Assembly: GCA_018304425.1 (NCBI GenBank)
Contig: JAGVWE010000003.1
Coordinates: 64,001-128,000, forward strand
Origin: Candidatus Iainarchaeum sp.
Lineage (GTDB): Archaea > Iainarchaeota > Iainarchaeia > Iainarchaeales > UBA10219
DNA length: 64,000 nucleotides
Reading direction: 5' to 3'
The notes under the pieces are model-generated. The model had not been told where the DNA came from, did no database searches, and worked only from the letters and a program-made list of their open reading frames with translations. Every line of letters starts with the position of its first letter. Position 1 is the stretch's first letter. Positions 10,616 to 31,800 of this stretch are shown here, in pieces. Made by a program: the position numbers and the translations under genes.

Positions 10616-10743
10616 GGTGTTTCCTCCCAAGAAAGAAGTATTCCCTGGATTAGATAGGGACCGGTTTATATTAATAATTTCCTGCTGTAATTATTCGCAT
10701 AAGAATAAATAGGGTTTTAAAGGGTTTGAGACAAGGGTATTTC

Positions 10744-11316
10744 ATGCTGCCGGAATTGGGCGACATCAAGTTCAGGCGCAAGCAGTTCGGCTTGACGCAG
10801 TCCGAGCTGGGCCACCGCGCCGGGGTCTCCCAGTCCCTCATCGCGAAAATCGAGGCCGGCAGCCTCGTGCCGAGCTATGAGAACGCCAAGAAATTGTTCG
10901 ACTTGCTGGACCAGCTGCACGAGGAAGTCAAGGTGAAGGCATCCGATCTGATGACGCACAAGGTGTTGAGCATCCCCAGCAACGCGAGCCTGGCGCGGGC
11001 CGCGAAGGCCATGAAGGAGAAGGGGGTGTCCCAGCTCCCGGTCATGGACAACGAAAAAATCGTGGGCACCCTTTCCGAGAAGGACATCCTGCAGCGCATC
11101 CATGACACGGATCACGCCATTGACCTGGGGCAGTTGACGGTTGCCGAGGTCATGGGCGAGCCGCTTCCCCTCATCCGGGAGGACACGACCTTCAGCCTTA
11201 TCTCCTCCCTGCTGGAACACTATCCGGCCGTGCTCATCGGAAAGAAAGGCAAAGCGGTTGGCATCATCTCCAAGTCCGACTTGCTGAAGGTCCTCCTTAA
11301 TAGAAAGAAGAAATAA
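10744..11316 (+). CDS. XRE-type HTH + CBS-pair transcriptional regulator
   Basis: GLTQSELGHRAGVSQSLIAKIEAG HTH; two CBS domains (SQLPV, GIISKSD). Confidence 0.9.
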   Translation: MLPELGDIKFRRKQFGLTQSELGHRAGVSQSLIAKIEAGSLVPSYENAKKLFDLLDQLHEEVKVKASDLMTHKVLSIPSNASLARAAKAMKEKGVSQLPVMDNEKIVGTLSEKDILQRIHDTDHAIDLGQLTVAEVMGEPLPLIREDTTFSLISSLLEHYPAVLIGKKGKAVGIISKSDLLKVLLNRKKK

Positions 11317-11341: not shown

Positions 11342-11394
11342 AGGTTTAAATACGTAAGCCGCACATAGTAATGTAGGTAGTAACTTTTTACTAC
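11342..11394 (+). promoter_or_regulatory. Promoter P1 of the surface-protein cluster with downstream palindrome
   Basis: AGGTTTAAATAC (11342-11353), CATAGTAATGTAG (11364-11376), then inverted repeat GTAGTAA-CTTT-TTACTAC (11377-11394). Confidence 0.65.
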
Positions 11395-11441
11395 TAACGA
11401 GTGACAAAGGTTTCCACTCGGAAGGGAGGAGGGAGTATTGG

Positions 11442-11744
11442 ATGAATAAGGCAATGGCTTTGGCGTTGATTGCATTGTTTGCTTTGACCGCTTTGCCTAG
11501 CTTTGTCTCAGCCTATTATCCCTATGGGTATTATGGCGGCTACCGCCCCGGCGTTTATAACTACGGGGCACCGTATTATGGCTCGTACTATAACTACGCG
11601 CCAGGCTCGTACTACAACTACGCGCCATTCGTGTACAGCTACGCCTACTACAGGCCGGCCGTATACAACCGGTACTACGCCTACCCAATGGGTTACCCCT
11701 ATCAGTATGGGGGATGCGGCTGGGGTCCATGCGGGTATTGGTGA
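11442..11744 (+). CDS. Secreted Tyr/Gly-rich low-complexity protein
   Basis: Strong GGAGG RBS; Sec-type signal peptide ending VSA. The predicted mature 76 aa contain 28 Tyr and no Asp/Glu, with a GSYYNYAP tandem repeat. Confidence 0.8.
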   Translation: MNKAMALALIALFALTALPSFVSAYYPYGYYGGYRPGVYNYGAPYYGSYYNYAPGSYYNYAPFVYSYAYYRPAVYNRYYAYPMGYPYQYGGCGWGPCGYW

Positions 11745-11804
11745 AGGCAGTAACGGCATGAAGTCTTGCCGCCTAGCTTACAGCAGCGTTGAAAAGGGAA
11801 AAAC

Positions 11805-12332
11805 ATGCGGAAAACCATTTTACTGGCGGGAATGATGGTGCTTGCGTTTTTTGCAGGCAACGCCCTTGCCGCCCCGTTTTACTACTACGGCGAGCAACGG
11901 GCCACGCCTGACTACTTCAACAGCATCGACCCCTTGATCGGCTCGCCCTATTACCCGGAAACCGCCCGGACCTATAGCCTGCGCGGCTACTTCTTCCACC
12001 GCAACTACCCGGTGAGCGCGCTCTCCATGGCCTATGAGCCGCTACGCTCCGAGGAACGGTTTCCCTATGGCAACGTCTACTCGTATGACCCGTTCACGGG
12101 CCTGACCTATCTCACGGGCAGCAAAGGCTACCGGCCATTCGACTACCGCTACAACCAAGGCCTCGGCAGTGCCTGGAACGGCCAAGGCCTTTCGGGCCGA
12201 AGCGCCGGCCGAGACCCCTCGGGTCGAGGCCAGGGCTACCAGTACCTGGACGGCGTGGCCTATAAGCAGCCCGCGGCAGCCAGCCCGGGCTTTGACTTTG
12301 ACACGTATGCCAGAGGGGTAACCTACAGGTGA
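11805..12332 (+). CDS. Secreted Tyr/Gly/Pro-rich protein
   Basis: Signal peptide ending ALA; Tyr-rich mature region. Confidence 0.75.
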   Translation: MRKTILLAGMMVLAFFAGNALAAPFYYYGEQRATPDYFNSIDPLIGSPYYPETARTYSLRGYFFHRNYPVSALSMAYEPLRSEERFPYGNVYSYDPFTGLTYLTGSKGYRPFDYRYNQGLGSAWNGQGLSGRSAGRDPSGRGQGYQYLDGVAYKQPAAASPGFDFDTYARGVTYR

Positions 12333-12336
12333 AAAC

Positions 12337-13137
12337 ATGAAAACCACTGCCTATCTTTTGGGAATAATCTTTTTGGCCTTGTTCGCGGCCAACGCGTTCG
12401 CGCAGGCCACGGTCCAACAGAACCCCATCGATTACACGTACTACGGTTACCCGACGGACTACCCCCTTAACTATATCCTGAAGAATAAGTTCCAGTTGTC
12501 GGGACCGGCCATGTTCGACTTCCGGTTCCTCTCACGGTACATCCCCAACGGAAAGCCGAACATCCTCGAAGAAGGCGTGTGCGTGGACGACGCCTGCTAC
12601 TGCAAGGTGAGATACGGCTTGCACGACAACACGAGTCACGTGCTGCCGCGCGACTACCAGATTTACATCACGCACCACAACAGCGCCAGCGACTACTCCG
12701 CGCCCAGGGGCTCACACAAGGGCTTGTACATGGACTGCGGGCAAAGCGTTTACCCTCCGAACCCCTATTATCCCGGGGAACGGAAGCCGCCCTACGTGCC
12801 CCAGGCTTACACGGCTGAAACCCTGGGCTCCAAGTACGGGACTCCGGTCAGCTGGAGCGTGGCCTATGACTACGCGAAGAACCTGCTCAAGCAACAGCCG
12901 CAGTCGGCCTACACCTACCAGCAGTTCTACGGCTATGGGAACACAAGCAACCCGCAGTTCAACCAGTACACGCGCCAGGGCGCCTACGACTGGGGGTATC
13001 CCATTAACACGACCTACAACCCCTACCAGACCGGAAGCTCTTACCAGGGGCCTACCAGCATTGGAGACCCCCTAGCGGGGGCAGGCGGCTATAGGACCAC
13101 CTACCGGCCGGGGTATACCTATCCCTACAATGGGTGA
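12337..13137 (+). CDS. Secreted Tyr/Pro/Gln-rich protein with a small Cys/His-containing core
   Basis: GGTGA RBS; signal peptide ending AFA; CVDDACYC...HH...H...C core; Tyr-rich tail. Confidence 0.75.
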   Translation: MKTTAYLLGIIFLALFAANAFAQATVQQNPIDYTYYGYPTDYPLNYILKNKFQLSGPAMFDFRFLSRYIPNGKPNILEEGVCVDDACYCKVRYGLHDNTSHVLPRDYQIYITHHNSASDYSAPRGSHKGLYMDCGQSVYPPNPYYPGERKPPYVPQAYTAETLGSKYGTPVSWSVAYDYAKNLLKQQPQSAYTYQQFYGYGNTSNPQFNQYTRQGAYDWGYPINTTYNPYQTGSSYQGPTSIGDPLAGAGGYRTTYRPGYTYPYNG

Positions 13138-15521
13138 AAACCATGCTGTCGCACAAAACTGTCCTCGCACTGGCCTTGTTGGTCTTGCTCGCTTCGAGCG
13201 CACTGGCCCAGACCTACAACTATTATAACCAGCCCACGGTCATCCCCGGGCAGCAGACTTCCAGGATTTCGCAGGCCGACATCGAGAAGGCCTTGCGGGA
13301 AATAGCCCGTGTCTACGGCCAAGTCCAGGGCAGGTTCATTGCCGAACAGCAGACCGGCTACCAGCTTCCAACCGTTGCCCAGGGACAGCCTTCGCTGGCC
13401 GGGCAACTGCAGAAGTACCTGCCCCAACCCACTGCCGCTGCCCAAGGACAACAGGCCAACCCGTTCCTGACCTATGGCTTCCAGCAGGACGTGACTGACT
13501 TGTTCAGCCGGGACTTCGTCCGGCAGCAACAAGGCGAGAACCCCCTGTACTCGCTGCCCCAGTACAAGCAGGACCCCCAGGCCCAAGCCGCTTACCAGCA
13601 GGCGCAACTCCCCGATTACCGGGAAGTGCGGCTGGTGGAATTGCGGGAGCGCAGCGTGCTCCAGGGAAACATGGAGTTCTTTGACGTGGAAATCAGGAAC
13701 ACGAACTTCATGCCCCGGGCCTATGCCTTGCACGTTGAGAAAGAGGATGCTTCCCTGAAGACCTCGCTGTCGGAGAGCGCGTTTTCGCTGGCTCCAGGCG
13801 AGGCCCGGACCGTGAAGGCCATCGTGGAGCCCACCAAGGAGACCAAGCCGGGCGCCAAGGCGGTTTACGTCGTGGTTACGAGCAGCCCCACCACGAGCGC
13901 CCCTACTGGCACTGGTTTGGGGCAACCCAGCTATTATGGCCAGGAATACGATTATGGTGGGGCCTCGGCTCTGGCCTCGGCTGCGGCCTCGGCTTTGCCC
14001 GCGCCCGTGATGGGGTTGCAGCGGCTGGTCGTTTCATTGGAGGACTTCCAGAAACCCGTCAAGGCCGAAACCGTCGTGTTGAAAGTCAACCGCCAGGAGT
14101 ATGACGTGGGCGCGAAGGGCTTTGACGTCCAGGTCAGCCCGAACAAGGTGGGCGGTTCGGACAAGGTAGAGGTCAGCATCGCTGAAGACTTTTTCGTGGG
14201 CAGCCAGCCTGCCGTGGTGGAAGTCCTGTTCATGGATGCGTTCGACAACGCGTACTCGCTTTCCTTTGAGTTGGTGCCCTCCAAGTACGAGGTCCAGGCC
14301 CGCAACCTCGAGTTCAAGGCCCAGGTCTTCAAGGCTTTGCAGTATGGCCGCGAGTTGCGGAACGCTTACTTCCGCGCGAGGGCTTCGACCGGCAAGTACG
14401 TGAAGAACAACGCGTACCAGTTGCAGGGGCCCCGGGCGTTCGTGAAGCTGGAGGAAACCATTCCAGTGGGCTCGAAGAATAACTTCGAGTTTTATGCGGA
14501 AGACCAGTTTGGCACTTACTTCAAGACGGTGGGAAGCTTCACCATCCGGTTCCTCGTGGCTCCCCAAGGCATGGGCTTGCCCGAGCAGGGCTACCGGGAG
14601 TACGGCAACAAGCAGGAGTACCGGGAACCGCTGACCCTGAGTGTCGTGGAAAAGCCGGTCTTGGCGGACGTGCTGCAGATTACCGCTTATCCGGCTGAAA
14701 TTAGCCTTAAAGGCGGGGAAAGCCGGGCTTTTGAGGTCAGCGTCTTGAATGCGGGCACGGAGCCGGCCAGGGACCTGGACCTGGCTTTGAGGGGGCTGCC
14801 GCAGGGCGTTGAATTCACGGCGAGCCAGGTGGATGAACTGCCGGCCGGAAAGTCCGCTGTGTTCAAGGCCACGCTGGCCACTGGTCTGGACGTCGAAAAA
14901 TCGTTCAGCCTGGAACTCGAGGCAAACGGCCTGGGCTTGATTGCCGCAGGCAAGGCATTGACCCTGAAATTGGAGCCCAAGCCACGGGTGTCCGAGCAGA
15001 ACCTGGTCAGCGAAGTCGTTGAACGCGAGCTCTCAAAGACCACGGTGAAGAGCAAGGTCTCCGACGAACAAATCAAGGCCGAAGTCGAGAAGATGATTTC
15101 CGCCCTGCAGTCCGAGGGCTTGAAGAAGGAGTCCGCCGAAAAAATCAGGGAACTGATTCCGGTGGACTTCGCCGTGAAGGCGAACATCTTGAATGCCGAG
15201 GGTGAGAAGGTGGACGCGCTTTACGGGATCAAGAAGGGCAAGGACTTGTTTGTCACGCGCGTGTATGACGGCATCGTGAACTCGGAGGTCAACCTGGACT
15301 ACGATACCTTGAACCGGTTGGCCGTGGAGAACATGGTGGGTTCCTTTGGCCAGGCGGGCCTGGTGGGCTTTGGGGTCAGCGACCAGGGAGTCGCAGTGGG
15401 TTTGGTCATCCTGGTGATTGGCCTGGTCGCCGTCATTTTGCTGTTCCGGGAAAAGCACAGTTCCAACGAGAAGTTCCTCCGCAAGCGGAACTTCGCCGTG
15501 ATTAAGGCCAAAAACCATTAA
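13134..15521 (+). CDS. Large membrane-anchored surface protein (Q/Y-rich N-terminus, Ig-like/NEW3-like domains, C-terminal TM)
   Basis: Signal peptide; beta-sandwich-type motifs (FSLAPGEARTV, VSVLNAG...LPQG...LPAGKS); hydrophobic helix followed by a basic tail. Confidence 0.8.
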   Translation: MKTMLSHKTVLALALLVLLASSALAQTYNYYNQPTVIPGQQTSRISQADIEKALREIARVYGQVQGRFIAEQQTGYQLPTVAQGQPSLAGQLQKYLPQPTAAAQGQQANPFLTYGFQQDVTDLFSRDFVRQQQGENPLYSLPQYKQDPQAQAAYQQAQLPDYREVRLVELRERSVLQGNMEFFDVEIRNTNFMPRAYALHVEKEDASLKTSLSESAFSLAPGEARTVKAIVEPTKETKPGAKAVYVVVTSSPTTSAPTGTGLGQPSYYGQEYDYGGASALASAAASALPAPVMGLQRLVVSLEDFQKPVKAETVVLKVNRQEYDVGAKGFDVQVSPNKVGGSDKVEVSIAEDFFVGSQPAVVEVLFMDAFDNAYSLSFELVPSKYEVQARNLEFKAQVFKALQYGRELRNAYFRARASTGKYVKNNAYQLQGPRAFVKLEETIPVGSKNNFEFYAEDQFGTYFKTVGSFTIRFLVAPQGMGLPEQGYREYGNKQEYREPLTLSVVEKPVLADVLQITAYPAEISLKGGESRAFEVSVLNAGTEPARDLDLALRGLPQGVEFTASQVDELPAGKSAVFKATLATGLDVEKSFSLELEANGLGLIAAGKALTLKLEPKPRVSEQNLVSEVVERELSKTTVKSKVSDEQIKAEVEKMISALQSEGLKKESAEKIRELIPVDFAVKANILNAEGEKVDALYGIKKGKDLFVTRVYDGIVNSEVNLDYDTLNRLAVENMVGSFGQAGLVGFGVSDQGVAVGLVILVIGLVAVILLFREKHSSNEKFLRKRNFAVIKAKNH

Positions 15522-15549
15522 CCCCCTGGAAAGCCTTGATAAGGCCTGG

Positions 15550-15567
15550 GAGGCTTATTCTAGCCTC
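15550..15567 (+). terminator. Hairpin between the two halves of the cluster
   Basis: GAGGCT-TATTCT-AGCCTC inverted repeat. Confidence 0.3.
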
Positions 15568-15583
15568 AATTGCCGCCAGAGAT

Positions 15584-15638
15584 AGGTTTAAATACTACCT
15601 CGGCAGCATGGTATATGTAGCTTGTTCACATGAACAAG
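15584..15638 (+). promoter_or_regulatory. Promoter P2 of the surface-protein cluster with downstream palindrome
   Basis: AGGTTTAAATAC (identical to P1), CATGGTATATGTAG, then perfect inverted repeat CTTGTTCA-CA-TGAACAAG (15621-15638). Confidence 0.65.
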
Positions 15639-15654
15639 TTAATCAAGGTGGGTT

Positions 15655-16191
15655 TTGGTGAAAAACACGGCAATCTTCCTGGCACTCTTGTTGGTGGTTA
15701 CAACCATCCGGGCAGAAGTCCTTGAACTGCCTGCCGAAGTCCAGTTTAGCGGACAGCCGGTCGAACTCTCTTTTAAGGTACGCAATGAGGCCTTCCAGGC
15801 CCTGCCGGTGCAGGTCGACGTCCAAGTCGTTTCCTTCAAGGTCCTGCGCAAGCCCGACCTCGTCCAACCCGGGGAAGTCCAGGAAATCCGGCTGCAGCTT
15901 CAACCCAGGAACGACCTCCTCGGCTCAACCTACCAGTCCACTATCACGGTCAAGATGGGGGCCCAGGAAACCCGGAAAGAAGTCAAATTCGTTTTCGGGG
16001 AAGCCCCCAAGCAGGCCCCGAAGAAAAATGCCCTCCCTCCAGCCACTCCAAAGGCTCCCACCGCATTCGCGGTGCTGCCCCTGGCCTTCAACGAGTTCAT
16101 GATGAACCTGGGGCTCGCGTTGCTGGCGGCCATTCTCTTGATTTCGTTCATTGCAAGGCTTACCAAAAGATTCATGCAAAACAGGGGTTGA
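15655..16191 (+). CDS. Small single-Ig-like-domain membrane-anchored protein
   Basis: Signal peptide, VQPGEVQEI beta-sandwich motif, Pro/Ala linker, PTAFAVL, TM helix, basic tail. Confidence 0.75.
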   Translation: MVKNTAIFLALLLVVTTIRAEVLELPAEVQFSGQPVELSFKVRNEAFQALPVQVDVQVVSFKVLRKPDLVQPGEVQEIRLQLQPRNDLLGSTYQSTITVKMGAQETRKEVKFVFGEAPKQAPKKNALPPATPKAPTAFAVLPLAFNEFMMNLGLALLAAILLISFIARLTKRFMQNRG

Positions 16192-16197
16192 AAAAAG

Positions 16198-17715
16198 ATG
16201 GACAAAGTCTTCCTCACGGGTTTGTTGATGGTCTTCCTGCTCGGATTGCCTGGTCTAGCCGGCGCCGTGACTTTCTCTGACCGGCTGCCAACAGGCGATA
16301 GCTCGAACGACCCCCTCCAAAAGATTGCCGTAACCCTTTCCGACCCGGACGGCATCAACAAGGACAAGGTTTACTTCGAAGTCGACGGCTTCAACTATGC
16401 CTTGAACGACCCCCGCATGAGCTATAACGAGGCCACGGGCCGCCTGGAATATACTCCCATCCGGGAGCGGGACGAACTCGACAAGGTGGACGTACTCGTT
16501 TCAGCCGAAGACACCCTGGGAGAAAAAGGCGAACTCCGGTTTTCCTTCACGATTAACTCCATCGGCCCGGCACCCATTGACTTCCTTTCCTTCGAAGCCG
16601 GCGTGCTCCGGTGGGCAAAGCCCTTGTCCCTGGACTCGGTGGCCAAGTACAAAGTCTACCGGGACACTTCCAGAATCAAGGACAACGGCAAGTCAGCCTA
16701 CTTCCTGGCCGAGGCTACGGGATTGAATTACACGGACTCCACAAGGGAAGAAGGAAAGAGATACTTCTACGCCGTTACGGCGGTGGACAACGCAGGCAGC
16801 GAAGGCCGGATTGCCTTGAACGTCTCCAGTGACGGACAGGTCTTCCCGGTCGGCCAGCCGGCTCCGGCTCCCCTGCCCCTGCCGTTCCCGGTTTACCCGG
16901 CACCCACTCCATTCCCTCCGACGGTGCCATACCCCGGCTTCGAAGGATTCGACCCTTACCCCCTGCCGAGCCCCAGCATCCCGTTCACGGGCCGCGTGGA
17001 CTTCGCTCCGAAGGGAGAAGTCATCCAACTCGAGCGCGGCGGCATTTCAAAGGCCGACTTCTCGGTCTCCAACGGTTTGCCCGTGGAAGTCACGGTCCGC
17101 TTCGAGATGAGTCAGGCCTCCATCGGCAACGGAACCGTTTTCATGTTCCAGCCCCAGAGCCAGCAGCTCCGCTACGGCAGGGGCTCCGGCTTCAAGCTCG
17201 CACCCGGCGAGACCACGTTTATCAGCCTGCCCGTAAAGGCCTCCGAACAGGCGTTGCCAGGCATTTACCTGCTGGGCATCGATTTAATCGCCTTGGACGA
17301 GGAAGGCCGCATGGTCTACTCGGACAGCTCCGGGGCGGAAGTGCAGGTATTCGCGCCCCTGCCCGAGCCTTTGGCTGCCGACCTGGTTCCCGCCAACTAT
17401 TACCAAGAGCTGGCACCGGTTGAAGACAACGGCCGCATCGAGGCCAGAATCGTCGAAGCGCCTCAGCCACTTATCCGCATCGCCGTGGAAGACGCCCAGG
17501 TTGCGCCCAAGCAAAAGGCAGCCGAGGCCGCAGCCGAGGCCAGAGCCGAGGCCCGTCAACCGCTGACCCAGGTCGCAGTCAAAGAGGCAGGCAATGCCCC
17601 TGCCGGGTTCTTCAACCTGGCCGCCATGACCACCCTGAACATGGCCCTCGGCTTCCTGGTGCTGGCCTTGTTGCTGGTGTACGGTTTAATCAGGCTTTCA
17701 GTGGAGAGGCGGTGA
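16198..17715 (+). CDS. Membrane-anchored surface protein with an FN3-like domain and Pro-rich linker
   Basis: Signal peptide; W...YKVYR...YTD...YFYAVTAVDNAGSEG (FN3-like); PAGFFNL before the TM helix. Confidence 0.8.
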   Translation: MDKVFLTGLLMVFLLGLPGLAGAVTFSDRLPTGDSSNDPLQKIAVTLSDPDGINKDKVYFEVDGFNYALNDPRMSYNEATGRLEYTPIRERDELDKVDVLVSAEDTLGEKGELRFSFTINSIGPAPIDFLSFEAGVLRWAKPLSLDSVAKYKVYRDTSRIKDNGKSAYFLAEATGLNYTDSTREEGKRYFYAVTAVDNAGSEGRIALNVSSDGQVFPVGQPAPAPLPLPFPVYPAPTPFPPTVPYPGFEGFDPYPLPSPSIPFTGRVDFAPKGEVIQLERGGISKADFSVSNGLPVEVTVRFEMSQASIGNGTVFMFQPQSQQLRYGRGSGFKLAPGETTFISLPVKASEQALPGIYLLGIDLIALDEEGRMVYSDSSGAEVQVFAPLPEPLAADLVPANYYQELAPVEDNGRIEARIVEAPQPLIRIAVEDAQVAPKQKAAEAAAEARAEARQPLTQVAVKEAGNAPAGFFNLAAMTTLNMALGFLVLALLLVYGLIRLSVERR

Positions 17716-19544
17716 AACAAGTCATGAACACGAAAATCGTTTTAGCTGGACTGGTATTGCTGCTCGTGGCAGGCCTTGCCGCGTTCGCAAAAGCCGAACC
17801 CATGGTAATGGCAGGCCAGGCAAAAACCTTGACGGTGGAACTCACCAACACGAAGAGTGTGGCCGAGACCCTGGACTTGTCCATTGAAAACCAGAACACG
17901 GGCATCATCGCCGAAGTCGAGCAAAAAGCGCTGACGCTCAAGGCCGGCGAACGCCGGACCGTGAACGTGATAGTCAAGGCACTGCCGGACGCCAGGGAAG
18001 GAACCTATTCCATCCGCTTGGTCGGCAAAAAGATGGTAACAGTCCAGGCCCAGCCGCAACCCATGCAGCCAGTAACGGCTCCCGGAGCGGTTCCAGCCAT
18101 GAACCAGCCCATGATGCCCATTCCGCCTGTTTACGGCCAGGCACCCGCTTACAACCAGGCCCTCCCAGGGTTTTCACCCGGACAGCCTGGAAGGCCGGTG
18201 TTCTATCCAACCATTCCAGGCAGGCCCCCGCTCCTCGTCGACGAAGGCGAAATGGATGTGGATGGCGCCCTAGCCATCGAAGCACATCTCTCCAATGCCG
18301 TGGACCCCGACAGCGTGAGGCTGGGCGTTAGGAACGAACTCTTTGACGCGAGCCGCAGGGAACTCAACGTGAGAGGCATCCCCGGCGGCGCCATCGTGGA
18401 ATTCGCAGATGATTTTTTCGAGAAAAAGGAAATCGTGCCCGTGTTCCTTGCCCTCGGCGACAGCCGCGGCAACGAGTACCGGTTTTCCTATGCCTTCAGC
18501 CCAGTGACCCTTGCCGTGGAAGACCCGCGGCTCTCGGTCCGGATCAACGAACTGGATGACGTGGACCCGACCTCGGTGCGGTTCGACCTCCGCGCCAACG
18601 ACTTTGGCGGAACCTTCACCGCTGACGGGCCGGGCATTTCCCTGAACCCCGTGACCGGCGAGATCGTGGCCGACCTGCGCGGCGCGCCGCTGCGGCTCGG
18701 CAGCCGGATTCCCTTCAGCGTGTACGCGAAGGACCTGGTGGGAAAGGAGTTCCGGGTCTCGGGAGACTTCGTGCTTGACTTTGACGACCGGCTTGCCGCC
18801 GCAGGCCAGGCAGTGAACAGCGGTGACACGCTCAAGGACTTCGTGGACTCGGTGGACCGGCAAAAGTACCGGGACTACATCCTCTACCGGAGGAACGTGA
18901 CCGAACCCTACATCAACTCGAGGAACTACATTGACAGCGTGAACCGACAGATGGACATCGACGCGGTAAGATACGGCGGGCCCATCTACCCGGCCAGCGA
19001 ACCATTCCTGGTGCAGGACCGGGACCGCATCACGTACTTCCAGGACGCGGAAATGGATGGCAGCCCCTACGCGGACGCCATTCCATTCGGGCCCATGAAC
19101 CCCTTCCTGGGGGACAGCTTCCCGGCACCCGAAGCAGGCCAGTTCGAGCCCAGGGAAACCGTGCGCGAAGAAGTGGTCTTCGAGAAAGCACTTTCCTTCC
19201 GAGTAGTGAACGAACGGGCTTCCACGGCCGCTCCATCCACGCGAGTAGCCGGGAAACCAGCCAAGCCCAACGCGGCCCAGGCTTTTGCCTCGCCCGTGCG
19301 GGTCACGGAAGCAGGGACCTCACCGGTAGCCGGCTTTGTTTCCTTCAGCTCCGTTGCCGCCATCGGAACGATTGGCGCGGGCATCGTCGTGGTGCTCTTG
19401 CTGGCCTTCATCGTGGGCTCGCTGAGCCGGCCTACGGGCCAGCCAACGGTTCGACCGGCCAGAACCGGGAACCGTTTGCCCCGGAAAAGAACTGGAAACA
19501 TTTCACCGGCCATGCACGTCATCCTCAACTACCGAAGCGGATGA
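17712..19544 (+). CDS. Membrane-anchored surface protein (Ig-like domains, Pro/Gln-rich linker)
   Basis: Signal peptide; LTLKAGERRTV...PDAREGTY; VDPDSV/VDPTSV repeat; VAGFVSF before the TM helix. Confidence 0.78.
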   Translation: MKQVMNTKIVLAGLVLLLVAGLAAFAKAEPMVMAGQAKTLTVELTNTKSVAETLDLSIENQNTGIIAEVEQKALTLKAGERRTVNVIVKALPDAREGTYSIRLVGKKMVTVQAQPQPMQPVTAPGAVPAMNQPMMPIPPVYGQAPAYNQALPGFSPGQPGRPVFYPTIPGRPPLLVDEGEMDVDGALAIEAHLSNAVDPDSVRLGVRNELFDASRRELNVRGIPGGAIVEFADDFFEKKEIVPVFLALGDSRGNEYRFSYAFSPVTLAVEDPRLSVRINELDDVDPTSVRFDLRANDFGGTFTADGPGISLNPVTGEIVADLRGAPLRLGSRIPFSVYAKDLVGKEFRVSGDFVLDFDDRLAAAGQAVNSGDTLKDFVDSVDRQKYRDYILYRRNVTEPYINSRNYIDSVNRQMDIDAVRYGGPIYPASEPFLVQDRDRITYFQDAEMDGSPYADAIPFGPMNPFLGDSFPAPEAGQFEPRETVREEVVFEKALSFRVVNERASTAAPSTRVAGKPAKPNAAQAFASPVRVTEAGTSPVAGFVSFSSVAAIGTIGAGIVVVLLLAFIVGSLSRPTGQPTVRPARTGNRLPRKRTGNISPAMHVILNYRSG

Positions 19545-19596
19545 CGTCCCCTATTTTTCTTTCAACCGCCCAGCCCGCGCTTGACCACCGGCACGT

Positions 19597-21456
19597 TCAA
19601 CGCTCCTTTCGAACCCAGGCCAGGGCAGTCAACAGCAGGGCATAGCCCCCTAACAAGCCCAGTAAAGGCGTGAGCGCGGCCAGGGAGAGGCCTTTCACCA
19701 TCAAGGCCAGCAGGACCTCTTTTGCTGCAGTCAAGGGCAGGAACCTGCTTATCGTGGCAATCCCGGCCGGCATGAACTCGAAGGGGAAAATCGTTCCGCT
19801 CAGGAACAGCATGGGAATCATGGCCAGCAACGAGCCAAGGATGGCCGTGGACAGGGTTTGCGTGAACTGGGCAATGAACAAGCCCAGCGCCGAAAAGGCG
19901 AGCGCGATGACGACCAGCACGGCCAACAACTCCAGGGGCTGCGCGTGCAGGGGCACGTTGAAGGCGAACACGGCCAAGCCCAGCACGATGCCGGCCTCCA
20001 CCAAGGCGAACGCGAGTTGGCCGAACAGTTTGCCCGCCAGCCAGGTTCCCCTCGAGACGCTGGACAAGGCCACGCGTTTGGAAATCCCGGCATTGCGTTC
20101 GAGCACGACCGACAACGCGGTCAAGAGGATGCAGGTCAAGAGCAGGACAATGGCCACCCCTACGGGGGTCACCACCGCCAGTTGGCTGGCCTGGAACGCC
20201 TCTTTTTCCGTGACCTCGACTGGCGTCACCAGGTACGCGGGCTGGTAGGCCTTGAAGCCGTGCACGTTTTCCAGCATGCCGTCCATCAAAGCGCGCGTTT
20301 TCTTGACGTCCTCGTTGAGTTCGGCCTGGGATTCCTTGGCCTCGAAAACGGTTGGCTTGCCTTCGGCGACCGTTTGCTCGAGCGAGGAAACGCTGTCCTC
20401 GAAGCCGCCCAGCGATTTCCTGGCGTCCTCGAGCCCGACCTCAGTGGCGTCAACGCCGGAAAGGGCTCCTTCGACGCGCGCGGCCGTGGAATCGATGTCC
20501 ACCAGGACGCTGCGCAAGTCCGTGGAAACCTTGTTCATGGAATTCACCTGCACGGCCAGGCTGTTCTGCATCTGCTGGAGCTGCGAGCGCAGGGGTTCCG
20601 CGGTGTAGGCCTGCATCTGGGCCAGGTTTTGCCGCATGCGGAGCAATTCGCTGGTCTGCGCGCCCGACGTGTTCTGGGCGTCGAAGACTTTTTTCTTGTA
20701 GCCGGTGAGCAGCGCGCGCGTGTCCTCCAGGCCGGAACGCGAGGACTCCAGGCGGGTCTTCGTGTCGCCATAGAACGAGTTGAAGGCGTCCAGGTCACCG
20801 GTTTCCTTTTCCAGGTCAATGGAATCGAATTGTTGGCTGAGCTTTTCCAGTTTTTCGCGGGTGCGCGCCAGGGTCTCGGAGAACGAGAGCAGCTTCTGGT
20901 TCTCGCTGTCCAAGTCGGCCTCGATTTTTCCCAGGTCGGACCAGATGTCGCCCAGGAGCTCGGTCGCCGTCTGGTAGGCCACGCCGCGCACGGCCGCACT
21001 GACCTGGGCGGCAACGGCTTTGCCGGCCACGACCGAGGAATTGTCGTACACGACTTCCACGGAAACCGGCTGGTTCTTGGCCGAGGGCCGCTGCACCAGG
21101 ATGGCCACCGTTTTTTGCCCGGAGGCGACGGCTTGCCGTGCCGCTTCCGGCGTGGAAACGAATTCGAGTTTCAACGCGTTCTGGTCCGAAATCTTTTCCA
21201 AAAAGCTTTCGCGGTCAAAGCCTTCCCCGGATTCAGGGAGGTAGAGGGCGGCCGAGACGCTTTCGATGGCCGGCTTTCCCAGGGCTTCCGCGTACGCCGT
21301 GCCCTGCCCAAAGGCGAGGGCCAGGGAGAGCATGACCAGCGCAGGGTAGACCAGCACCAGGGCCAGGGCAATCCGTTGCGCGCCGATGAGCTTGACTTCC
21401 TTGGAGGCGATGGCGCCCAGTTGGAGCAGGGGCTGGAAGGGGCTAGGGCTTGGCAC
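19597..21456 (-). CDS. ABC-2 type exporter permease with a long extracytoplasmic coiled coil (YhgE/Pip-like architecture)
   Basis: N-terminal TM, heptad-rich helical region, C-terminal ABC-2 membrane domain (LERNAG, FLSGTIFP, FLPLT). Confidence 0.82.
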   Translation of the reverse strand: MPSPSPFQPLLQLGAIASKEVKLIGAQRIALALVLVYPALVMLSLALAFGQGTAYAEALGKPAIESVSAALYLPESGEGFDRESFLEKISDQNALKLEFVSTPEAARQAVASGQKTVAILVQRPSAKNQPVSVEVVYDNSSVVAGKAVAAQVSAAVRGVAYQTATELLGDIWSDLGKIEADLDSENQKLLSFSETLARTREKLEKLSQQFDSIDLEKETGDLDAFNSFYGDTKTRLESSRSGLEDTRALLTGYKKKVFDAQNTSGAQTSELLRMRQNLAQMQAYTAEPLRSQLQQMQNSLAVQVNSMNKVSTDLRSVLVDIDSTAARVEGALSGVDATEVGLEDARKSLGGFEDSVSSLEQTVAEGKPTVFEAKESQAELNEDVKKTRALMDGMLENVHGFKAYQPAYLVTPVEVTEKEAFQASQLAVVTPVGVAIVLLLTCILLTALSVVLERNAGISKRVALSSVSRGTWLAGKLFGQLAFALVEAGIVLGLAVFAFNVPLHAQPLELLAVLVVIALAFSALGLFIAQFTQTLSTAILGSLLAMIPMLFLSGTIFPFEFMPAGIATISRFLPLTAAKEVLLALMVKGLSLAALTPLLGLLGGYALLLTALAWVRKER

Positions 21457-22435
21457 TGGCCTTCACCCCCGCAGGGGGCAGGTGCCTTTCCCCCGTCAAG
21501 TGGATGAACACGTCTTCGAGTTCGGGTTCCTTCAACTGCTGGCTCAACACCTTGATGCCCTTGCCTTCCACCAGGGAAACGATTTTGCCAGCGGCCTCAA
21601 CCTGATTCCTTTCAGGCAGGGAAACGAAGAGGAAGTGGTGCTTCCACTGGACGCCGGCCTTCGGGTAGAGTCGGTGGATGCCGGCCAGCAGCTCTTTTTC
21701 GCGTTCCAGGTCCGTGCCTTCCGCGGCGCGGAGGGCCAGGATTTTTTCCCCGCCAAAGCGCGCGATGAGTTCCTTGGGGCTGCCGTGGGCCAGGATTTCC
21801 CCGTGGAACAGGATGGCCAGCTCGTCGCACAGCTTCTGGGCTTCCTCCATGTAGTGGGTGGTCAAGACAATGGCTTTGCCCTGTTTTTTGAGTTCCACGA
21901 TTTTCTTCCAGAAGGTGTGCCGCACGTTGGGGTCCAAGGCAACCGTGGGCTCGTCGAAGAAAACGAGGTCGGGGTCGTGGACCAGCGAGCACGCGATGTT
22001 CAGCAGGCGGCGGTAACCGCCCGAGAGTCGCTCGGCGCGCGTTGCCGCAAAGGGCCTGAGTTCCAGCCACCCGAGGAGGGCGGACACGCGTTCATTCAAT
22101 GCCGCGCCGCCCAGGCCGTTGAGGCAGCCGAAGAAGCGGAGGTTTTCTTCCACGGAAAAGGAGGGGTAAAAGCATTCCTCCTGGGGCACGACTCCGAGGA
22201 ACGCGTGCAGGTCCTTGCCGTATTCCTTCAAATCGCGGCCGCGGATTTTCACGTGGCCGGCATCGCTGGGGTAGAGGCCGGAGAGGATGCCGAGCAGGGT
22301 GGACTTGCCCGCGCCGTTCGGGCCCAGGAGGCCGAAGACCTGGCCGTTTTCCACGGCAAAGGAAACCCCTTTCAACAAGGCCCGGCCCTGGAAGGACTTG
22401 CCAATGCCCTGTGCCTCTAACGCCGATTTCATCAT
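21443..22435 (-). CDS. ABC transporter ATP-binding protein
   Basis: GPNGAGKST, LSGG, FFDEPT and TTHYMEEA motifs. Confidence 0.93.
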   Translation of the reverse strand: MMKSALEAQGIGKSFQGRALLKGVSFAVENGQVFGLLGPNGAGKSTLLGILSGLYPSDAGHVKIRGRDLKEYGKDLHAFLGVVPQEECFYPSFSVEENLRFFGCLNGLGGAALNERVSALLGWLELRPFAATRAERLSGGYRRLLNIACSLVHDPDLVFFDEPTVALDPNVRHTFWKKIVELKKQGKAIVLTTHYMEEAQKLCDELAILFHGEILAHGSPKELIARFGGEKILALRAAEGTDLEREKELLAGIHRLYPKAGVQWKHHFLFVSLPERNQVEAAGKIVSLVEGKGIKVLSQQLKEPELEDVFIHLTGERHLPPAGVKASAKP

Positions 22436-22603
22436 AGAATTGGGGCCTATGGGGTTAAAATGCGTTTCCAAGGCGTTGGCTTTGCTCTTAAAGTCGCTTT
22501 CGCTCCTTAAGTCGGGGTCTGCTCAGGTAGCCCCCCTGTTCGAATTAAGGCCCAATCAAGGCCAATAGGAAATAATGCCTGTTTCAGCACAACTACTAAT
22601 TAC

Positions 22604-22691: not shown

Positions 22692-24050
22692 ATGAAGACC
22701 CCTGAAAAACCGCCGAGCTGGCCTAGTGAATTACGTACTTTCGTGAAAACAAACGATTTGCCAAAAATGCTTCAGGACAGCGAATTGTCCGGCATAATCA
22801 AGGAGAGCCAGAGAAAATATCTGTATTGGGAGGAACTCAGGCACCGCTACCCTAACCCGTCTCATCCCCACAAGTCCATCTGGGCGATTATCAAGCTTTT
22901 CAGGGTACAGCAATACAAGTCCATTGTGATAGGGGGTCGAGTTTTCAATTACTTTCTCACAGAGTCAGCACAAGAAAAACTTCGTTACGCTGATTCGCAT
23001 GCCGGACAAATAATTGGTTCGGAATCTCCCCGCGATAAGTTTCAGGGCGGGGAAAGGAAGCGCTACCTGATTAATTCCCTGATGGAGGAAGCCATTGCTT
23101 CAAGCCAATTGGAGGGGGCAATGACTACTCGCAAGGTCGCCAAAGAAATGCTTAGAACAAAACGCGAGCCAAGAAGCAAAAACGAGTTAATGATTTACAA
23201 CAACTACCAAACAATTAAATACATTAAAGACCTTTTTGAGACCTCAAACGCAGGGGACAGCAAACTAACGTCTTCCTTGATTTTATCATTGCATAAGCTC
23301 ATAACTAAAGGCACGCTTAAGAACCCGCGAGCCGAAGGAAAGTTCAGGGGCACGGATGACATAATAGTCCGAGATGATGCCAACGAAGTAGAATACGTTC
23401 CCCCACCACATAATCAAGTCCCCACCCTAGTCAACGACTTATGCGATTTTGTGAATGCTCCAGCCCTCCCGTTCATTCACCCGCTAATTAAGGCCATAAT
23501 ACTCCACTTTCTGGTTGGATATATTCATCCATTTGAGGACGGCAACGGCAGGGCTGCGAGAGCCTTATTTTACTGGTTTTGCTTAAAGTCCGGTTACTGG
23601 CCCTTTGAGTTCATGCCCATTTCAAGGATAATAAAGAAAGCACCGGCAAAGTACGCGAGAGCATTTCTTTTCACGGAATACGATGACTTGGACATGAATT
23701 ACTTCATTGAATTCAATTTAGACGCGATAAAGCAGGCAATCGTTGAACTTGGCGCTTACCTGAAGAAAAAACAAAAAGAAAAAAACGAGGCGCTACAGTT
23801 AATGACTAAATTGGCCAAGGACCTTAATCTACGCCAATCCCTTATATTGAAGGACTTAGTGGAAGAACCTGAAAAAGCTCTCTCAATAAAAGAAACAAGT
23901 GCGAAATACAATGTAACCTATCAAACAGCGAGAACGGATTTATTGGAACTCTCAAAAAAAGGCTATCTTGGCCTACACAAGAAACGAAAGCAGTTCGTGT
24001 TTTATAAATCAGACAAATTCGACGAAAAAATAAGAACGGACAAAAACTGA
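22692..24050 (+). CDS. Fic family protein with C-terminal HTH
   Basis: HPFEDGNGRAAR catalytic motif; SSQLEG inhibitory motif; VTYQTARTDL HTH; AT-richer than its flanks. Confidence 0.93.
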   Translation: MKTPEKPPSWPSELRTFVKTNDLPKMLQDSELSGIIKESQRKYLYWEELRHRYPNPSHPHKSIWAIIKLFRVQQYKSIVIGGRVFNYFLTESAQEKLRYADSHAGQIIGSESPRDKFQGGERKRYLINSLMEEAIASSQLEGAMTTRKVAKEMLRTKREPRSKNELMIYNNYQTIKYIKDLFETSNAGDSKLTSSLILSLHKLITKGTLKNPRAEGKFRGTDDIIVRDDANEVEYVPPPHNQVPTLVNDLCDFVNAPALPFIHPLIKAIILHFLVGYIHPFEDGNGRAARALFYWFCLKSGYWPFEFMPISRIIKKAPAKYARAFLFTEYDDLDMNYFIEFNLDAIKQAIVELGAYLKKKQKEKNEALQLMTKLAKDLNLRQSLILKDLVEEPEKALSIKETSAKYNVTYQTARTDLLELSKKGYLGLHKKRKQFVFYKSDKFDEKIRTDKN

Positions 24051-28885: not shown

Positions 28886-31800
28886 TTACACCCGGATGGT
28901 CTTCCCACTTTCATGGTAGCGTTTCAAGGTGTAGGCTGCCAAGAAGGAAACGCCGATTTCGGCGAGGGCCGCGATGACGCCCAGGCCGAGCCTCGAGGAG
29001 AGGCCCAGCCACAGCGGCAGCGCGAAGGCCAGCAGGGCCAGGAAGGCCTGCACGAGTTTCTCGCGCTTCAAGTGCGTCGTCGACTTGGGCCCGGGCGGGA
29101 AGAACGCCCGCGCCTGCGAGTACACGAGGTAGGCGGCGGCCATGGCGCATACCAGCAGCAGGACCACGGCAAAGGGGCCGACCTGCTCGATGGCCTCGAT
29201 GGTGGGTTCCAGGGAACTCGAAATCGAGTTCAAGATCGAGCCGAACAAGTCCAGGGCGCTGAAAGACTTTTCCGCGGAAAGCTGTTCCTTGACGACTTTC
29301 ACGGCGTACACGCCCGGCACCTTCACCGTGAACTCGACCTTGCCCAGCTCGTCCGTGAGCGCCTCCAGCTTTTCGCCGTCCGGGGCCTCCGCGATGACGG
29401 TCGCGGCGCGGATGGTGTTGCCCAACTGGTTCCTGACTTCCACGACCTGCCGCTCGCCGATGGTCAACGACTGCTTCAAGGCAATCAGGAGTTCCTCGGG
29501 CTCCGAGCAGTCCGAGGCCTTGTCCCGGCAGGTGCCGTCCGCGCACTGGACCGTTTCCTCCGGACACTCGCAGTTGCCGGACTCCAGCGAACAACGCGCG
29601 CCGCGCTCGCAGTTGCTGATCAACCCCTCGCAGTCCCCGCACACGCAGGACTCGTCCAGGCCGCACACCCCATCCGCCTCGCAGGAAGCCGGCTGGCCGC
29701 AGAGCATGCTAGGCTTGCAGCTTCCGTCCGTGCACCGGTTGGTTCCGGCCGGGCAAGCCGCGACCGGCGAGCACTTGCCGCGCGCGTCCAGCACCGTTCC
29801 CTTTGGACAGGCACAGGCGCTCAACCGCACATTGCAGGCCACGGTGGAAGCACAGATGCCTTGCTTGCCGTCGCAGTCCCGGCACGAGCAGTCCTCGCTG
29901 GCCTCGCACACGCGGTCGTTGTCGCACAGCCGGGGAGAAGGCGGCTCGCTCACGGCCAGGTCCAAAATGAATTCCCCGAAACCCTGCTCGCCTTCCAAGA
30001 ACACGACCTTCAACCCGTTGGGCAGGCGCTCAATGCCTGCCGCCAGGTTGCTGCCCAACGCCTCGCTGAACTCGAATTTGATGCGTTCCGCGACCTTGAG
30101 CCGGCCCAGGGAAAACGAGAGCTTGTTGGGCGAGGGAAGCAGGTAACCGGGCTTTCCGGGCTTGTCCTTGCCGTAAATCCGCATGGAGGCCGGGGTCTTG
30201 ACCTTCAAGCCGATTTTTTTTGCGGCAAAGTTGGCCTGCGGTTGCTCAACTTCGAAGACCAGGTCGTCCACGGTCTTCAGGTCCTGCGCGGCCTTGAACC
30301 GGAAGTCCAGGGAAAACCTCCCGGAAGCCGAGTCCCGCACCGAGGACTTCAAGCTGTAGAACTGGCCGTTCACGAAGCGGTCCGAGTACTGCACCTGGAC
30401 GTTCTTGTTGCCACCCGAGACCCTGAGCTTCGCGCCCTCCGGCACCGGGACCCCATTGGCTTGGAATTCCACGCTGCCCTGCTGCAAGGGCTTTGAAAAG
30501 TTTTCAAAGGTCAGGTTGATCTTCATGTCCACGGGCCCCGGAACCAGCGAACAATCAGGGCGACAGCTGTTGTCCGCGCAGAGGTTGGTTCCAGGCAAGC
30601 AGCCGCCGGCCTTGCAGGTTCCGTCCGGGGCCAGCACGGTTCCGGTGGGGCAACCGCACAAGCCGGTTCCGGTTGAGCCCACGGTCTCGCCGAAGTAACG
30701 GCAGGCCGAGGCATCCACGCAGCCGTCCTTTTGGCTAGCACAATCCGAACAATTGCAGGCCTCCGTGGTTTCACACGCGCCGTCCCGGTTGCAGGGCAAG
30801 AAATTGCCGGAACCACAGTCCACCTTGCAGGTGTTGTCCAGGCAACGAGTCGTTCCCACCGGACAGCCTCCACCTACCGAACCGCAGTCCACCTTGCAGG
30901 TGTTGTCCGAGCACAGGCTCTGACCAACCGGACACTGCAAGGGGGGACCGCAATAGTCGCGGCAGCTGCCGTCCACACAGGCAGTTTTTCCAACCGGGCA
31001 AATAGGACAATTAACTTGACAAATCGGGGGCCCACAGTCCAGCCGACAGGCGCTGTCCGAGCACAGGGTTTGGCCGACCGGGCAGGGCCCGCAAAACGTG
31101 CGGCAGGTGTTGTCCGCGCAACGCGTTTGCCCTCCTGGGCAAGGCAAGCAGTTGCTTTTACAGGGGCCGGGACCTGGGTCGGGCGTGCACAGCCAACTGC
31201 ACGAGCCATTGGAGCATCTGGTTTTGGGCGGCAGGCAAGGCGGGCCCGAACCGCAGTCGGCTTGGCAAGTATTGTCTTCACAGCGCTGTAAACCATTGGG
31301 GCAGGGCAGGCATTCGACAAAAATCCCGGTGCAGGGTCCGGGCCCGCAATCGGTTTGACAACTATTGTCTCCGCACAACTGCTGGCCCGGTGGGCAGGCA
31401 CCGGTTCCGCAGTCCGGCCGGCAGACATCGTCCGCGCACAAGGCTTGCCCGAGCTGGCAGGGGCCACAGAATTCCCTGCAGGAACCGTCCAGGCATGGAA
31501 TCCTTCCAGGGGGACAGGACGGACAGTTCACCTGGCAGGGACCTGGCCCCCGGCCGCTGCCGCAATCAAAGCGGCAAACGTTGTCCTCGCACACCTTCTT
31601 GGGAGGCAAACAGGGCTCGCCCCCACCCGGCCCACAGTCGACCTGGCAGGAACCATTGGCGCACCGGTTCAGGCCGGGCAGGCAAGGCACGCAGTTGACC
31701 TGGCAGGGACCCGGCCCACAATCCAGCCGGCAGGAGTTGTCATTGCATGTTTGGCTGGGTGGCGTGCAAGCCTGGCCCTGGCATTGGCTGGGAGGCTGGC

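Follow-up and report, generated by a model that had tools for sequence, protein, structure and literature searches.

What is built by seven consecutive, co-oriented genes that all appear to encode exported proteins, the first three of them exceptionally rich in tyrosine and the last four bearing immunoglobulin (Ig)-like domains and a transmembrane (TM) anchor? The genes, termed g1 to g7, lie with their promoters at positions 11,342 to 19,544 of a 64,000-nucleotide (nt) stretch of DNA from Candidatus Iainarchaeum sp. (GenBank assembly GCA_018304425.1, contig JAGVWE010000003.1, positions 64,001 to 128,000 of the forward strand), referred to below as the window. The original prediction, made from the letters of the window, regarded all seven genes as one system in which soluble Tyr-rich subunits assemble on the anchored proteins into a coat, sheath or adhesive. 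Our analysis divides the locus instead: synteny across the order to which the genome belongs (Iainarchaeales) extends only to a regulator gene, g5 and the large anchored proteins, so that the seven genes do not stand as one system, and g1 to g4 are a lineage-specific operon set between the regulator and g5.

Gene structure and promoters of the locus

The seven co-oriented open reading frames (ORFs) are present as first described (Table 1), and searches of their products against Pfam and NCBIfam return no catalytic family. By a hydropathy heuristic, every product begins with a hydrophobic segment followed by an A-x-A-type site, and g4 to g7 alone end in one C-terminal hydrophobic helix with basic residues after it. 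The first three are Tyr-rich and unanchored, again in line with the original description: g1 (28.0% Tyr), g3 (13.9%) and g2 (12.6%) rank first, third and fourth in Tyr content among the ~1,450 ORF-called genes of the genome, for which the mean is 2.7% and the 99th percentile 7.3%. No longer run of co-oriented secreted-like genes exists in the 1.48-Mb genome (the next longest has 5 genes); with 129 secreted-like genes among 1,206 confidently called ones, about 2e-4 runs of seven or more would be expected if such genes were placed independently. Within the run, g1 and g2 are 60 nt apart, g2 and g3 are 4 nt apart, and g3 and g4 overlap by 4 nt; a gap of 133 nt follows g4, after which g5 and g6 are separated by 6 nt and g6 and g7 overlap by 4 nt. 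This spacing suggests two transcription units, g1 to g4 and g5 to g7.

Table 1. Features of the locus, in window coordinates (aa, amino acids)
Feature	Position	Strand	Description
HTH(XRE)-CBS regulator gene	10726-11316	+	Left of g1; Pfam CBS (1e-23) and HTH_3 (5e-12)
Promoter core of operon 1, AGGTTTAAATAC	11342-11353	+	100 nt before g1
g1	11442-11744	+	100-aa Tyr-rich protein, predicted to be exported
g2	11805-12332	+	175-aa exported Tyr-rich protein, founding member of a small conserved family
g3	12337-13137	+	266-aa exported Tyr/Pro/Gln-rich protein with 4 Cys
g4	13134-15521	+	795-aa acidic anchored protein with Q/Y-rich arm and Ig-like domains
Promoter core of operon 2, AGGTTTAAATAC	15584-15595	+	71-74 nt before g5
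g5	15658-16191 (15655 in first ORF call)	+	177-aa Ig-plus-TM protein
g6	16198-17715	+	505-aa acidic anchored protein
g7	17712-19544	+	610-aa acidic anchored protein; 606 aa from ATG 17724
Oligo-T run	19553-19563	+	Possible archaeal terminator just past the g7 stop, judged from sequence

Could the small Tyr-rich ORFs be chance reading frames in GC-rich DNA that are never translated? An exact look-up of g1 in a collection of 15 billion proteins, with either form of its start, found no match, which speaks for this explanation; several lines of evidence run the other way, and we consider it extremely improbable. Under a codon-usage score for which 460 long ORFs of this genome served as the training set, g1 to g7 have gene-typical log-odds of 0.26 to 0.38 (g1, 0.261), against a training mean of 0.26 (standard deviation [SD], 0.15). 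ORFs in overlapping frames score below them, save for one of 86 aa that lies antisense to the start of g5 (0.262 versus 0.266); the coding status of g5 is nevertheless secure because homologues occur in 92 other genomes. Signal peptides and tight operon spacing also argue for translation, as do a purine-rich, GGAGG-type putative ribosome-binding stretch directly before the ATG of g1, the full-length homologues of g2 with their conserved motifs (described below), and the presence of g1, letter for letter, in the ESM Atlas.

Public protein collections hold g2, g3, g4 and g6 as called genes, in variants that are at least 98% identical, truncated forms aside, and contigs from four further DNA runs, which cover the locus in part, are identical to it. 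With variants near-identical and contigs identical, there is no population signal on selection (no ratio of nonsynonymous to synonymous substitutions, dN/dS). From the forms present in these collections, GTG 15658 is the more likely start of g5 and ATG 17724 that of g7. We rejected a mobile element or integrated virus as an explanation, since the locus does not stand out from the genome in GC content or codon usage, and neither an integrase nor a flanking tRNA is present.

Two near-identical promoters had been proposed to drive the two halves of the locus, and this is true of their cores. The 12-mer AGGTTTAAATAC, which resembles a B recognition element (BRE) and TATA box, has exactly two copies on both strands of the genome, one before g1 and one before g5; the flanks are only loosely alike, and the two upstream regions align poorly outside the core. 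Copies with one mismatch occur at 18 sites, one of which lies 68 nt before the gene for another Tyr-rich protein (c3_257, on contig C3). When the 99 other TTTAAATA sites of the genome are ranked by the likeness of their next 34 nt to the g5 promoter, c3_257 (score, 7), a further Tyr-rich gene on the same contig (c3_158; 6) and g1 (6) rank about 3rd to 6th, or within the top six to nine with ties, whereas the mean score is 2.9 (SD, 1.6). Such likenesses suggest that all Tyr-rich and surface units share a single promoter class, and the consensus form of the BRE/TATA core is only a hint of strong expression. A scan for bacterial-type motifs found no sigma-70-like promoters, and terminator-like sites occurred at chance level.

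The anchored proteins and their conservation across the order

The original assignment of Ig- or FN3-like domains and a C-terminal TM helix to the last four genes is upheld by Pfam, by the domains of relatives, by hydropathy and by a structural model of g4. g4 consists of a signal, a Q/Y-rich disordered arm of ~140 aa, four Ig-like beta-sandwiches, a helical segment and the C-terminal TM helix, with Pfam matches to NEW3 (2.6e-8) and, weakly, to a FixG_C-type Ig fold. Its AlphaFold2 model, built from a 17-row alignment (mean predicted local distance difference test score [pLDDT], 65.5), places confident sandwiches at residues 171-254, 296-385, 387-476 and 494-614, disorder at residues 26-170, 255-293 and 676-751, and helices at residues 621-674, ahead of the TM helix. 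The remaining anchored proteins vary this plan: g5 has a signal, one Ig-like domain (Pfam Ig matches are only sub-threshold), a P/K-rich linker and a TM anchor; g6 has a signal, Big_5-like and FN3 domains, a P-rich linker, an Ig-like domain, an A/E-rich helix and a TM helix; and g7 has a signal, an Ig-like domain, a P/Q-rich linker, Big-like domains, a TM helix and a basic tail, with a weak match to FixG_C. g6 itself is without a Pfam match, and its N terminus aligns with Big_5-like and FN3 modules of relatives.

Fold comparison of g4 by Foldseek and VIA-align finds generic tandem Ig/PapD-like arrays. Its fold matches include HYDIN-type domains, domain III of Fsx1/HAP2, transglutaminase barrels and macroglobulin domains; the best VIA-align match of a g4 domain is a sialidase Ig linker (Z, 12.8 over 98 residues), and the surface-layer (S-layer) protein SbsB appears among many matches at a template-modeling score of about 0.1 only. 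At the level of sequence, the anchored proteins have no relatives in PDB. A HMMER search with g4 of 1.84 billion representatives yielded only 15 non-self proteins at an E value of at most 1e-3, as single-domain matches, and a word-indexed search of 5.8 billion proteins returned only g4 itself. Within their own proteome, g4 and g7 are distant paralogues (23% identity over 343 aa; E value, 1.4e-5), the only pair that blastp with composition correction found. No family of type IV pilins or archaellins in Pfam or NCBIfam is matched by proteins of the locus, whose N termini are Sec-like, with a long hydrophobic core and an A-x-A-type site.

A G(F/L)x motif stands 8 to 14 residues before the TM core in g4, g6 and g7, in the g5 family and, among large proteins of relatives, in 12 of 20; in the g5-family alignment, it takes the form of a GFF-type motif ahead of a near-invariant TM block. 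The motif might act in sorting or make a conserved juxtamembrane contact. It departs from the PGF-CTERM pattern in its distance from the TM core and in the tails, many of which run on for 30 to 60 residues past the helix, and CTERM models have no match in g4 to g7 at E values up to 1. In favor of a PGF-CTERM-type role, an archaeosortase-family gene is present in the genome (TIGR04178, 30.9 bits), as it is in 193 of the 196 genomes of the order. Elsewhere in the genome, a 1,270-aa exported protein (C7:48316-52128, minus strand) has a PEY-type motif, a TM helix and a basic cluster at its extreme C terminus and looks more like a classical archaeosortase substrate than g4 to g7 do. Several large anchored proteins of relatives (at loci L029, L031 and L036), along with the 510-aa protein of the second locus described below, share an EQVW- or QKW-type motif in the cytoplasmic tail, and in relatives, the large anchored protein is often followed by a second large protein with a Lys-rich tail.

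How widely is this anchored set kept? Among the species representatives compared, the genome is the sole member of its family; the searches given here span the order. The most widely kept gene of the locus is g5, with a full-length match in 92 of 195 other genomes of the order (93 of 196 when its own is included). Matches to g6 occur in 57 of 150 other genomes (58 of 151 with its own) but cover only N-terminal residues ~6-270; these Big_5-like plus FN3 regions lie inside ORFs of 240 to 3,100 aa, mostly of 700 to 1,650 aa. Domain-level matches exist to g4 in 12 of 40 other genomes and to g7 in 10 of 150 (11 of 151 with its own). A g5-like gene lies within 5 kb of the g4-type match, on the same contig and strand, in 11 of these 12 genomes, and within 5 kb and on the same strand of the g7-type match in 8 of the 10, usually upstream. 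Some relatives have one large protein that merges parts of g6, g7 and g4 (for example, a protein of 1,309 aa in genome G025), and Pfam domains in the large proteins of relatives comprise Big_5/Big_13, fn3, NEW3 and FixG_C.

Orthologues of the HTH-CBS regulator (39 to 52% identity) were found at 10 of 19 relatives' loci examined, and in six genomes from five families, the orthologue stands directly upstream of the g5-like gene, with gaps of 87 to 430 nt. The adjacency of regulator, g5-like gene and large protein in relatives points to an ancestral order of regulator, g5 and large anchored proteins; in the present genome, the 4.3 kb between regulator and g5 are occupied by g1 to g4. The original prediction had staked its claim on synteny in relatives: the anchored half has it, and the Tyr-rich half does not, there being no homologue of g1 or g3 in 150 other genomes of the order and none of g2 in 195 genomes of the order or 214 of the phylum (profile search). 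Nor did 14 surface loci of relatives hold any credible Tyr-rich ORF beside the operon, the sole one flagged being a 62-aa antisense ORF inside a large gene.

Tyrosine-rich exported proteins within and beyond the locus

Mature g1 has 76 aa, of which 28 (37%) are Tyr, with no Asp or Glu, three Arg/Lys and a C-x4-C motif near the C terminus. The mature forms of g1 to g3 have isoelectric points of 8.2 to 8.7, in contrast with 4.7 to 5.6 for g4, g6 and g7. None of the three has a Pfam or NCBIfam match, and they are probably unfolded; the ESM Atlas model of g1 has a pLDDT of 0.36, and a single-sequence AlphaFold2 model of g3 is uninformative (pLDDT, 35). Leads to g1 in the ESM Atlas score at most 0.85 and are all planctomycete hypothetical proteins; g3 has no lead there. 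In the search of 5.8 billion proteins, nothing scored against g1 even at E values up to 10, and at that threshold, 195 genomes of the order gave 7 weak g1-like matches, five with internal stops and none of them a Tyr-rich secreted ORF.

Unlike its two neighbors, g2 belongs to a family. Its homologues form four clusters of proteins of 185 to 190 aa, 51 to 57% identical to it over 100% of the length and encoded on unbinned contigs of 0.75 to 5.4 kb. In the family alignment, blocks of conserved motifs and 13 invariant Tyr accompany a linker that varies, a pattern of conservation that marks a protein under selection rather than mere low complexity. The family has no relative in Pfam or PDB; a scan of genome contigs with the g2-family alignment found no relative, nor did metagenome scans with this alignment and with g4.

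A C-x4-C pair in a Gly/aromatic context recurs in g1 (~11715-11735), in g3 as C-x4-C-x-C (~12580-12600) and in the Tyr-rich protein of a relative (genome G015, C2:11173-11574); it may form a small disulfide loop or may have arisen by chance.

The size and charge of g1 invite comparison with antimicrobial peptides. Under this explanation, g1, and perhaps other small Tyr-rich proteins, would be archaeocin-like, with an ABC-2 transporter serving immunity or export; mature g1 is indeed short, cationic, exported and equipped with one Cys pair, and genes for an ABC-2 permease and an ATPase lie 50 nt past g7. These transporter genes, however, are convergent to g7 and outside the operon (19597-22471, minus strand), the signal of g1 is of the ordinary Sec type, and g1 is, by the predicted operon structure, co-transcribed with structural-type proteins. 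Moreover, Tyr-rich secreted proteins number at least five in the genome and differ greatly in size, and we regard an archaeocin as very improbable. The permease has a coiled-coil extracytoplasmic insert of ~380 residues, and no evidence was found that ties the transporter to the gene cluster.

Because sequence searches are blind to low-complexity proteins, Tyr-rich proteins were also sought by composition, both here and in samples of ~0.4 Mb per genome from four relatives (G015, G016, G028 and G029). The second most Tyr-rich protein of the genome, c3_158, is an exported Gly/Tyr protein of 158 aa and 22% Tyr (C3:52920-53396, minus strand), whose stand-alone gene directly follows those for SecF and SecD and whose promoter resembles that of g5. 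A second locus on the same contig (C3:110498-112816) encodes the 257-aa exported protein c3_257, with a Tyr-rich N-terminal half, and immediately after it a 510-aa protein (C3:110498-112030) with a Tyr/Gly-rich N terminus, Ig-type repeats and a C-terminal TM helix. Among the relatives, G015 (first 381 kb of one contig) has a 133-aa exported protein with 24% Tyr and C-x4-C, whose gene follows those for a secreted protein of 462 aa and an S8 subtilase carrying FG-GAP repeats, and G028 (400 kb) has a stand-alone gene for a 130-aa exported protein with 21.5% Tyr; no small Tyr-rich exported protein was found in G016 or G029 (400 kb each). Very Tyr-rich small exported proteins are, then, a recurrent but patchy trait of the group, and this genome is the only one in which they are seen coupled to Ig-anchored proteins, at two loci.

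A candidate surface coat and its rivals

From gene structure, composition, domains, paralogy, synteny and promoter sharing, we infer the formation of a coat, the retention of soluble proteins in it and a cementing role for them. In this tentative reading, to which we give not quite an even chance, the locus is the main surface-coat locus of a groundwater DPANN archaeon, in which a conserved anchored operon is joined by a lineage-specific Tyr-rich one. Its old part would be the HTH-CBS regulator, g5 and the large Ig/FN3 proteins g6 and g7 with their C-terminal TM helices, kept across the order; its new part would be the operon g1 to g4, with its own copy of the consensus BRE/TATA core, placed between regulator and g5. 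The acidic anchored Ig proteins would stand on the membrane and form an outer, S-layer-like protein coat, and they are the best candidates for such a coat because no MSTP-type S-layer gene (PF07752) was found in this genome. The Tyr-rich g1 to g3 would be exported by Sec into the coat and held there by aromatic and electrostatic contacts, with one another and with the low-complexity arms of g4, g6 and g7, to act as filler or cement; oxidative cross-linking of Tyr is possible but optional. Several observations favor an action of the soluble proteins on or within the anchored layer: g3 overlaps g4, a Tyr-rich and anchored pair recurs on contig C3, the charges are complementary and the promoter core is shared.

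The same genes might instead have nothing to do with one another, g1 to g4 being a fast-evolving "dark-matter" insertion whose Tyr-rich proteins act alone, for example, by binding groundwater minerals, metals or polysaccharides. Consistent with such independence, g1 and g3 are orphans, g2 is absent from the order and phylum genomes searched, and Tyr-rich proteins stand alone at C3:52920 and in G028. Lineage-specific islands of archaea are reported to be enriched (PMC4158269) in proteins with low complexity, TM segments and signal peptides. Yet the translational overlap of g3 with g4, the recurrence of a Tyr-rich and anchored pair at a second locus, the common promoter core, and the opposite charges of soluble and anchored proteins speak against it, as does the Q/Y-rich arm that g4 itself bears, and we consider independence possible but rather unlikely.

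Several further points weigh against a coat cemented by Tyr-rich proteins. Relatives keep the anchored operon without detectable g1 to g3, so the anchored proteins do not need them. Elsewhere, Tyr-rich proteins are not tied to Ig-anchored genes (c3_158 and those of G028 and G015), and the Tyr-rich segments, though alike in composition, have no residue order in common (z of at most 3.5 when local alignments are set against shuffles); convergence, instead of membership in a single family, may explain them. N-glycosylation sequons number 3 in g6, 2 in g7 and none in g4 (AglB/STT3 is present in the genome), whereas classical archaeal S-layer glycoproteins usually carry many. Finally, the signal and TM assignments come from the hydropathy heuristic rather than a dedicated predictor, and the ranking of promoter likeness at TTTAAATA sites is a post-hoc test.

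Were the Tyr-rich proteins a wet glue borne on anchored Ig stalks at a contact site, the locus would serve as an adhesive for attachment to a host or to particles. Mature g1, small and basic, with its 37% Tyr alongside Gly, Pro and Asn, recalls in composition the small basic mussel adhesive proteins rich in Tyr and 3,4-dihydroxyphenylalanine (DOPA). Cultivated DPANN archaea are, going by published abstracts, mostly ectosymbionts. The genome, moreover, encodes an exported multicopper oxidase of the CueO/laccase type (511 aa, with a lipoprotein-like signal; C2:9625-11160, minus strand), the only candidate Tyr-oxidizing enzyme found in it. This gene, however, is unlinked to the locus, on a separate 11.6-kb contig beside thioredoxin-like, membrane and metal-related genes, and relatives hold the conserved operon without Tyr-rich partners. 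No DyP peroxidase was found in the genome, and a search for tyrosinase was blank, as it was in control genomes, so that this blank carries no weight. Altogether, we judge an adhesive function to be distinctly unlikely.

A more far-reaching form of the coat reading, which we advance as speculative and improbable, would have disordered proteins of 13 to 37% Tyr condense on the arms of the Ig stalks and perhaps become cross-linked by the laccase-type enzyme. The product would be an undescribed archaeal wall cement, present in some Iainarchaeota, a prokaryotic analogue of spore coats and of the Tyr glues of animals, and it would have arisen by insertion of an operon with a copied promoter core.

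In composition, and in composition only, the Tyr-rich proteins resemble the Tyr/Gly sticker domains of FUS type and mussel adhesive proteins, which likewise combine dense Tyr with Gly/Ser/Pro/Asn spacers, few charges and predicted disorder; here, the Tyr density is far higher (37% in mature g1), and the setting is prokaryotic and extracellular. Closest to the anchored half are the archaeal S-layer proteins of the Ig class, which, according to a preprint (bioRxiv 10.1101/2024.05.28.596244), are, like g4, g6 and g7, large and exported, with several Ig-like domains and a C-terminal TM anchor, and which share with the locus an extreme divergence of sequence and a small anchored partner (here, g5); the preprint selects candidate S-layer proteins by the same heuristic criteria. 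The locus differs in having four anchored proteins rather than one or two, and no sequence match or specific structural match to any solved S-layer protein was found. Among described S-layer operons, we found none with Tyr-rich soluble proteins.

Two other systems offer partial parallels. CotC, CotU and CotG of the Bacillus subtilis spore coat are, according to PMC7944565, small, very Tyr-rich structural proteins that assemble outside the cytoplasm, on a protein scaffold, into high-mass material with dityrosine cross-links. The likeness lies in Tyr richness and in an oxidase-type enzyme in the genome; the differences are that there is no kinship in sequence, that the archaeon does not sporulate, that export is by Sec and that the oxidase is unlinked. 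In the VARTIG modules of Thermococcales (PMC8416519), Ig-domain surface proteins also lead a locus with variable, lineage-specific companions. The same source describes a hypervariable C-terminal Ig domain and a polymorphic-toxin-like layout and reports VARTIG to be restricted to Thermococcales, from which our locus differs in its near-identical public variants, its lack of toxin-like genes and its occurrence in an organism whose closest named relatives are Ca. Iainarchaeum.

Farther along the window, a 3,559-aa ORF (28886-39565, minus strand) with nine Glucodextran_B repeats and Big_7, Big_13 and HYR-type domains encodes a giant surface protein, in a region of strong GC skew (0.20 to 0.24). 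A 452-aa Fic/DOC-domain protein (22692-24050, plus strand) lies in the window's only low-GC patch (0.475, versus about 0.59), which may be acquired DNA.

The original view that the arrangement is not a described archaeal system is sustained by the literature: searches on the surfaces and S-layers of DPANN, Iainarchaeota and Diapherotrites, and on Tyr-rich or dityrosine envelope proteins of archaea, returned no description of such a locus, the supplement of the S-layer survey, which possibly lists an Iainarchaeota candidate, aside. The anchored half is an uncharacterized but ordinary type of archaeal surface operon, and it is the grafted Tyr-rich operon that is unusual. The envelopes of DPANN archaea, through which these small cells come into contact with hosts and minerals, are almost unknown outside a few cultivated lineages. 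The conserved surface operon defined here for the order of Iainarchaeum, made up of the regulator, the g5 family and large Ig/FN3 anchored proteins, is a concrete candidate for their coat. Should the Tyr-rich proteins turn out to have a structural role, they would represent a novel class of envelope material in archaea, from which self-assembling or adhesive peptides could be drawn; otherwise, the locus would still be a clear case of lineage-specific secreted genes grafted onto a conserved surface operon.

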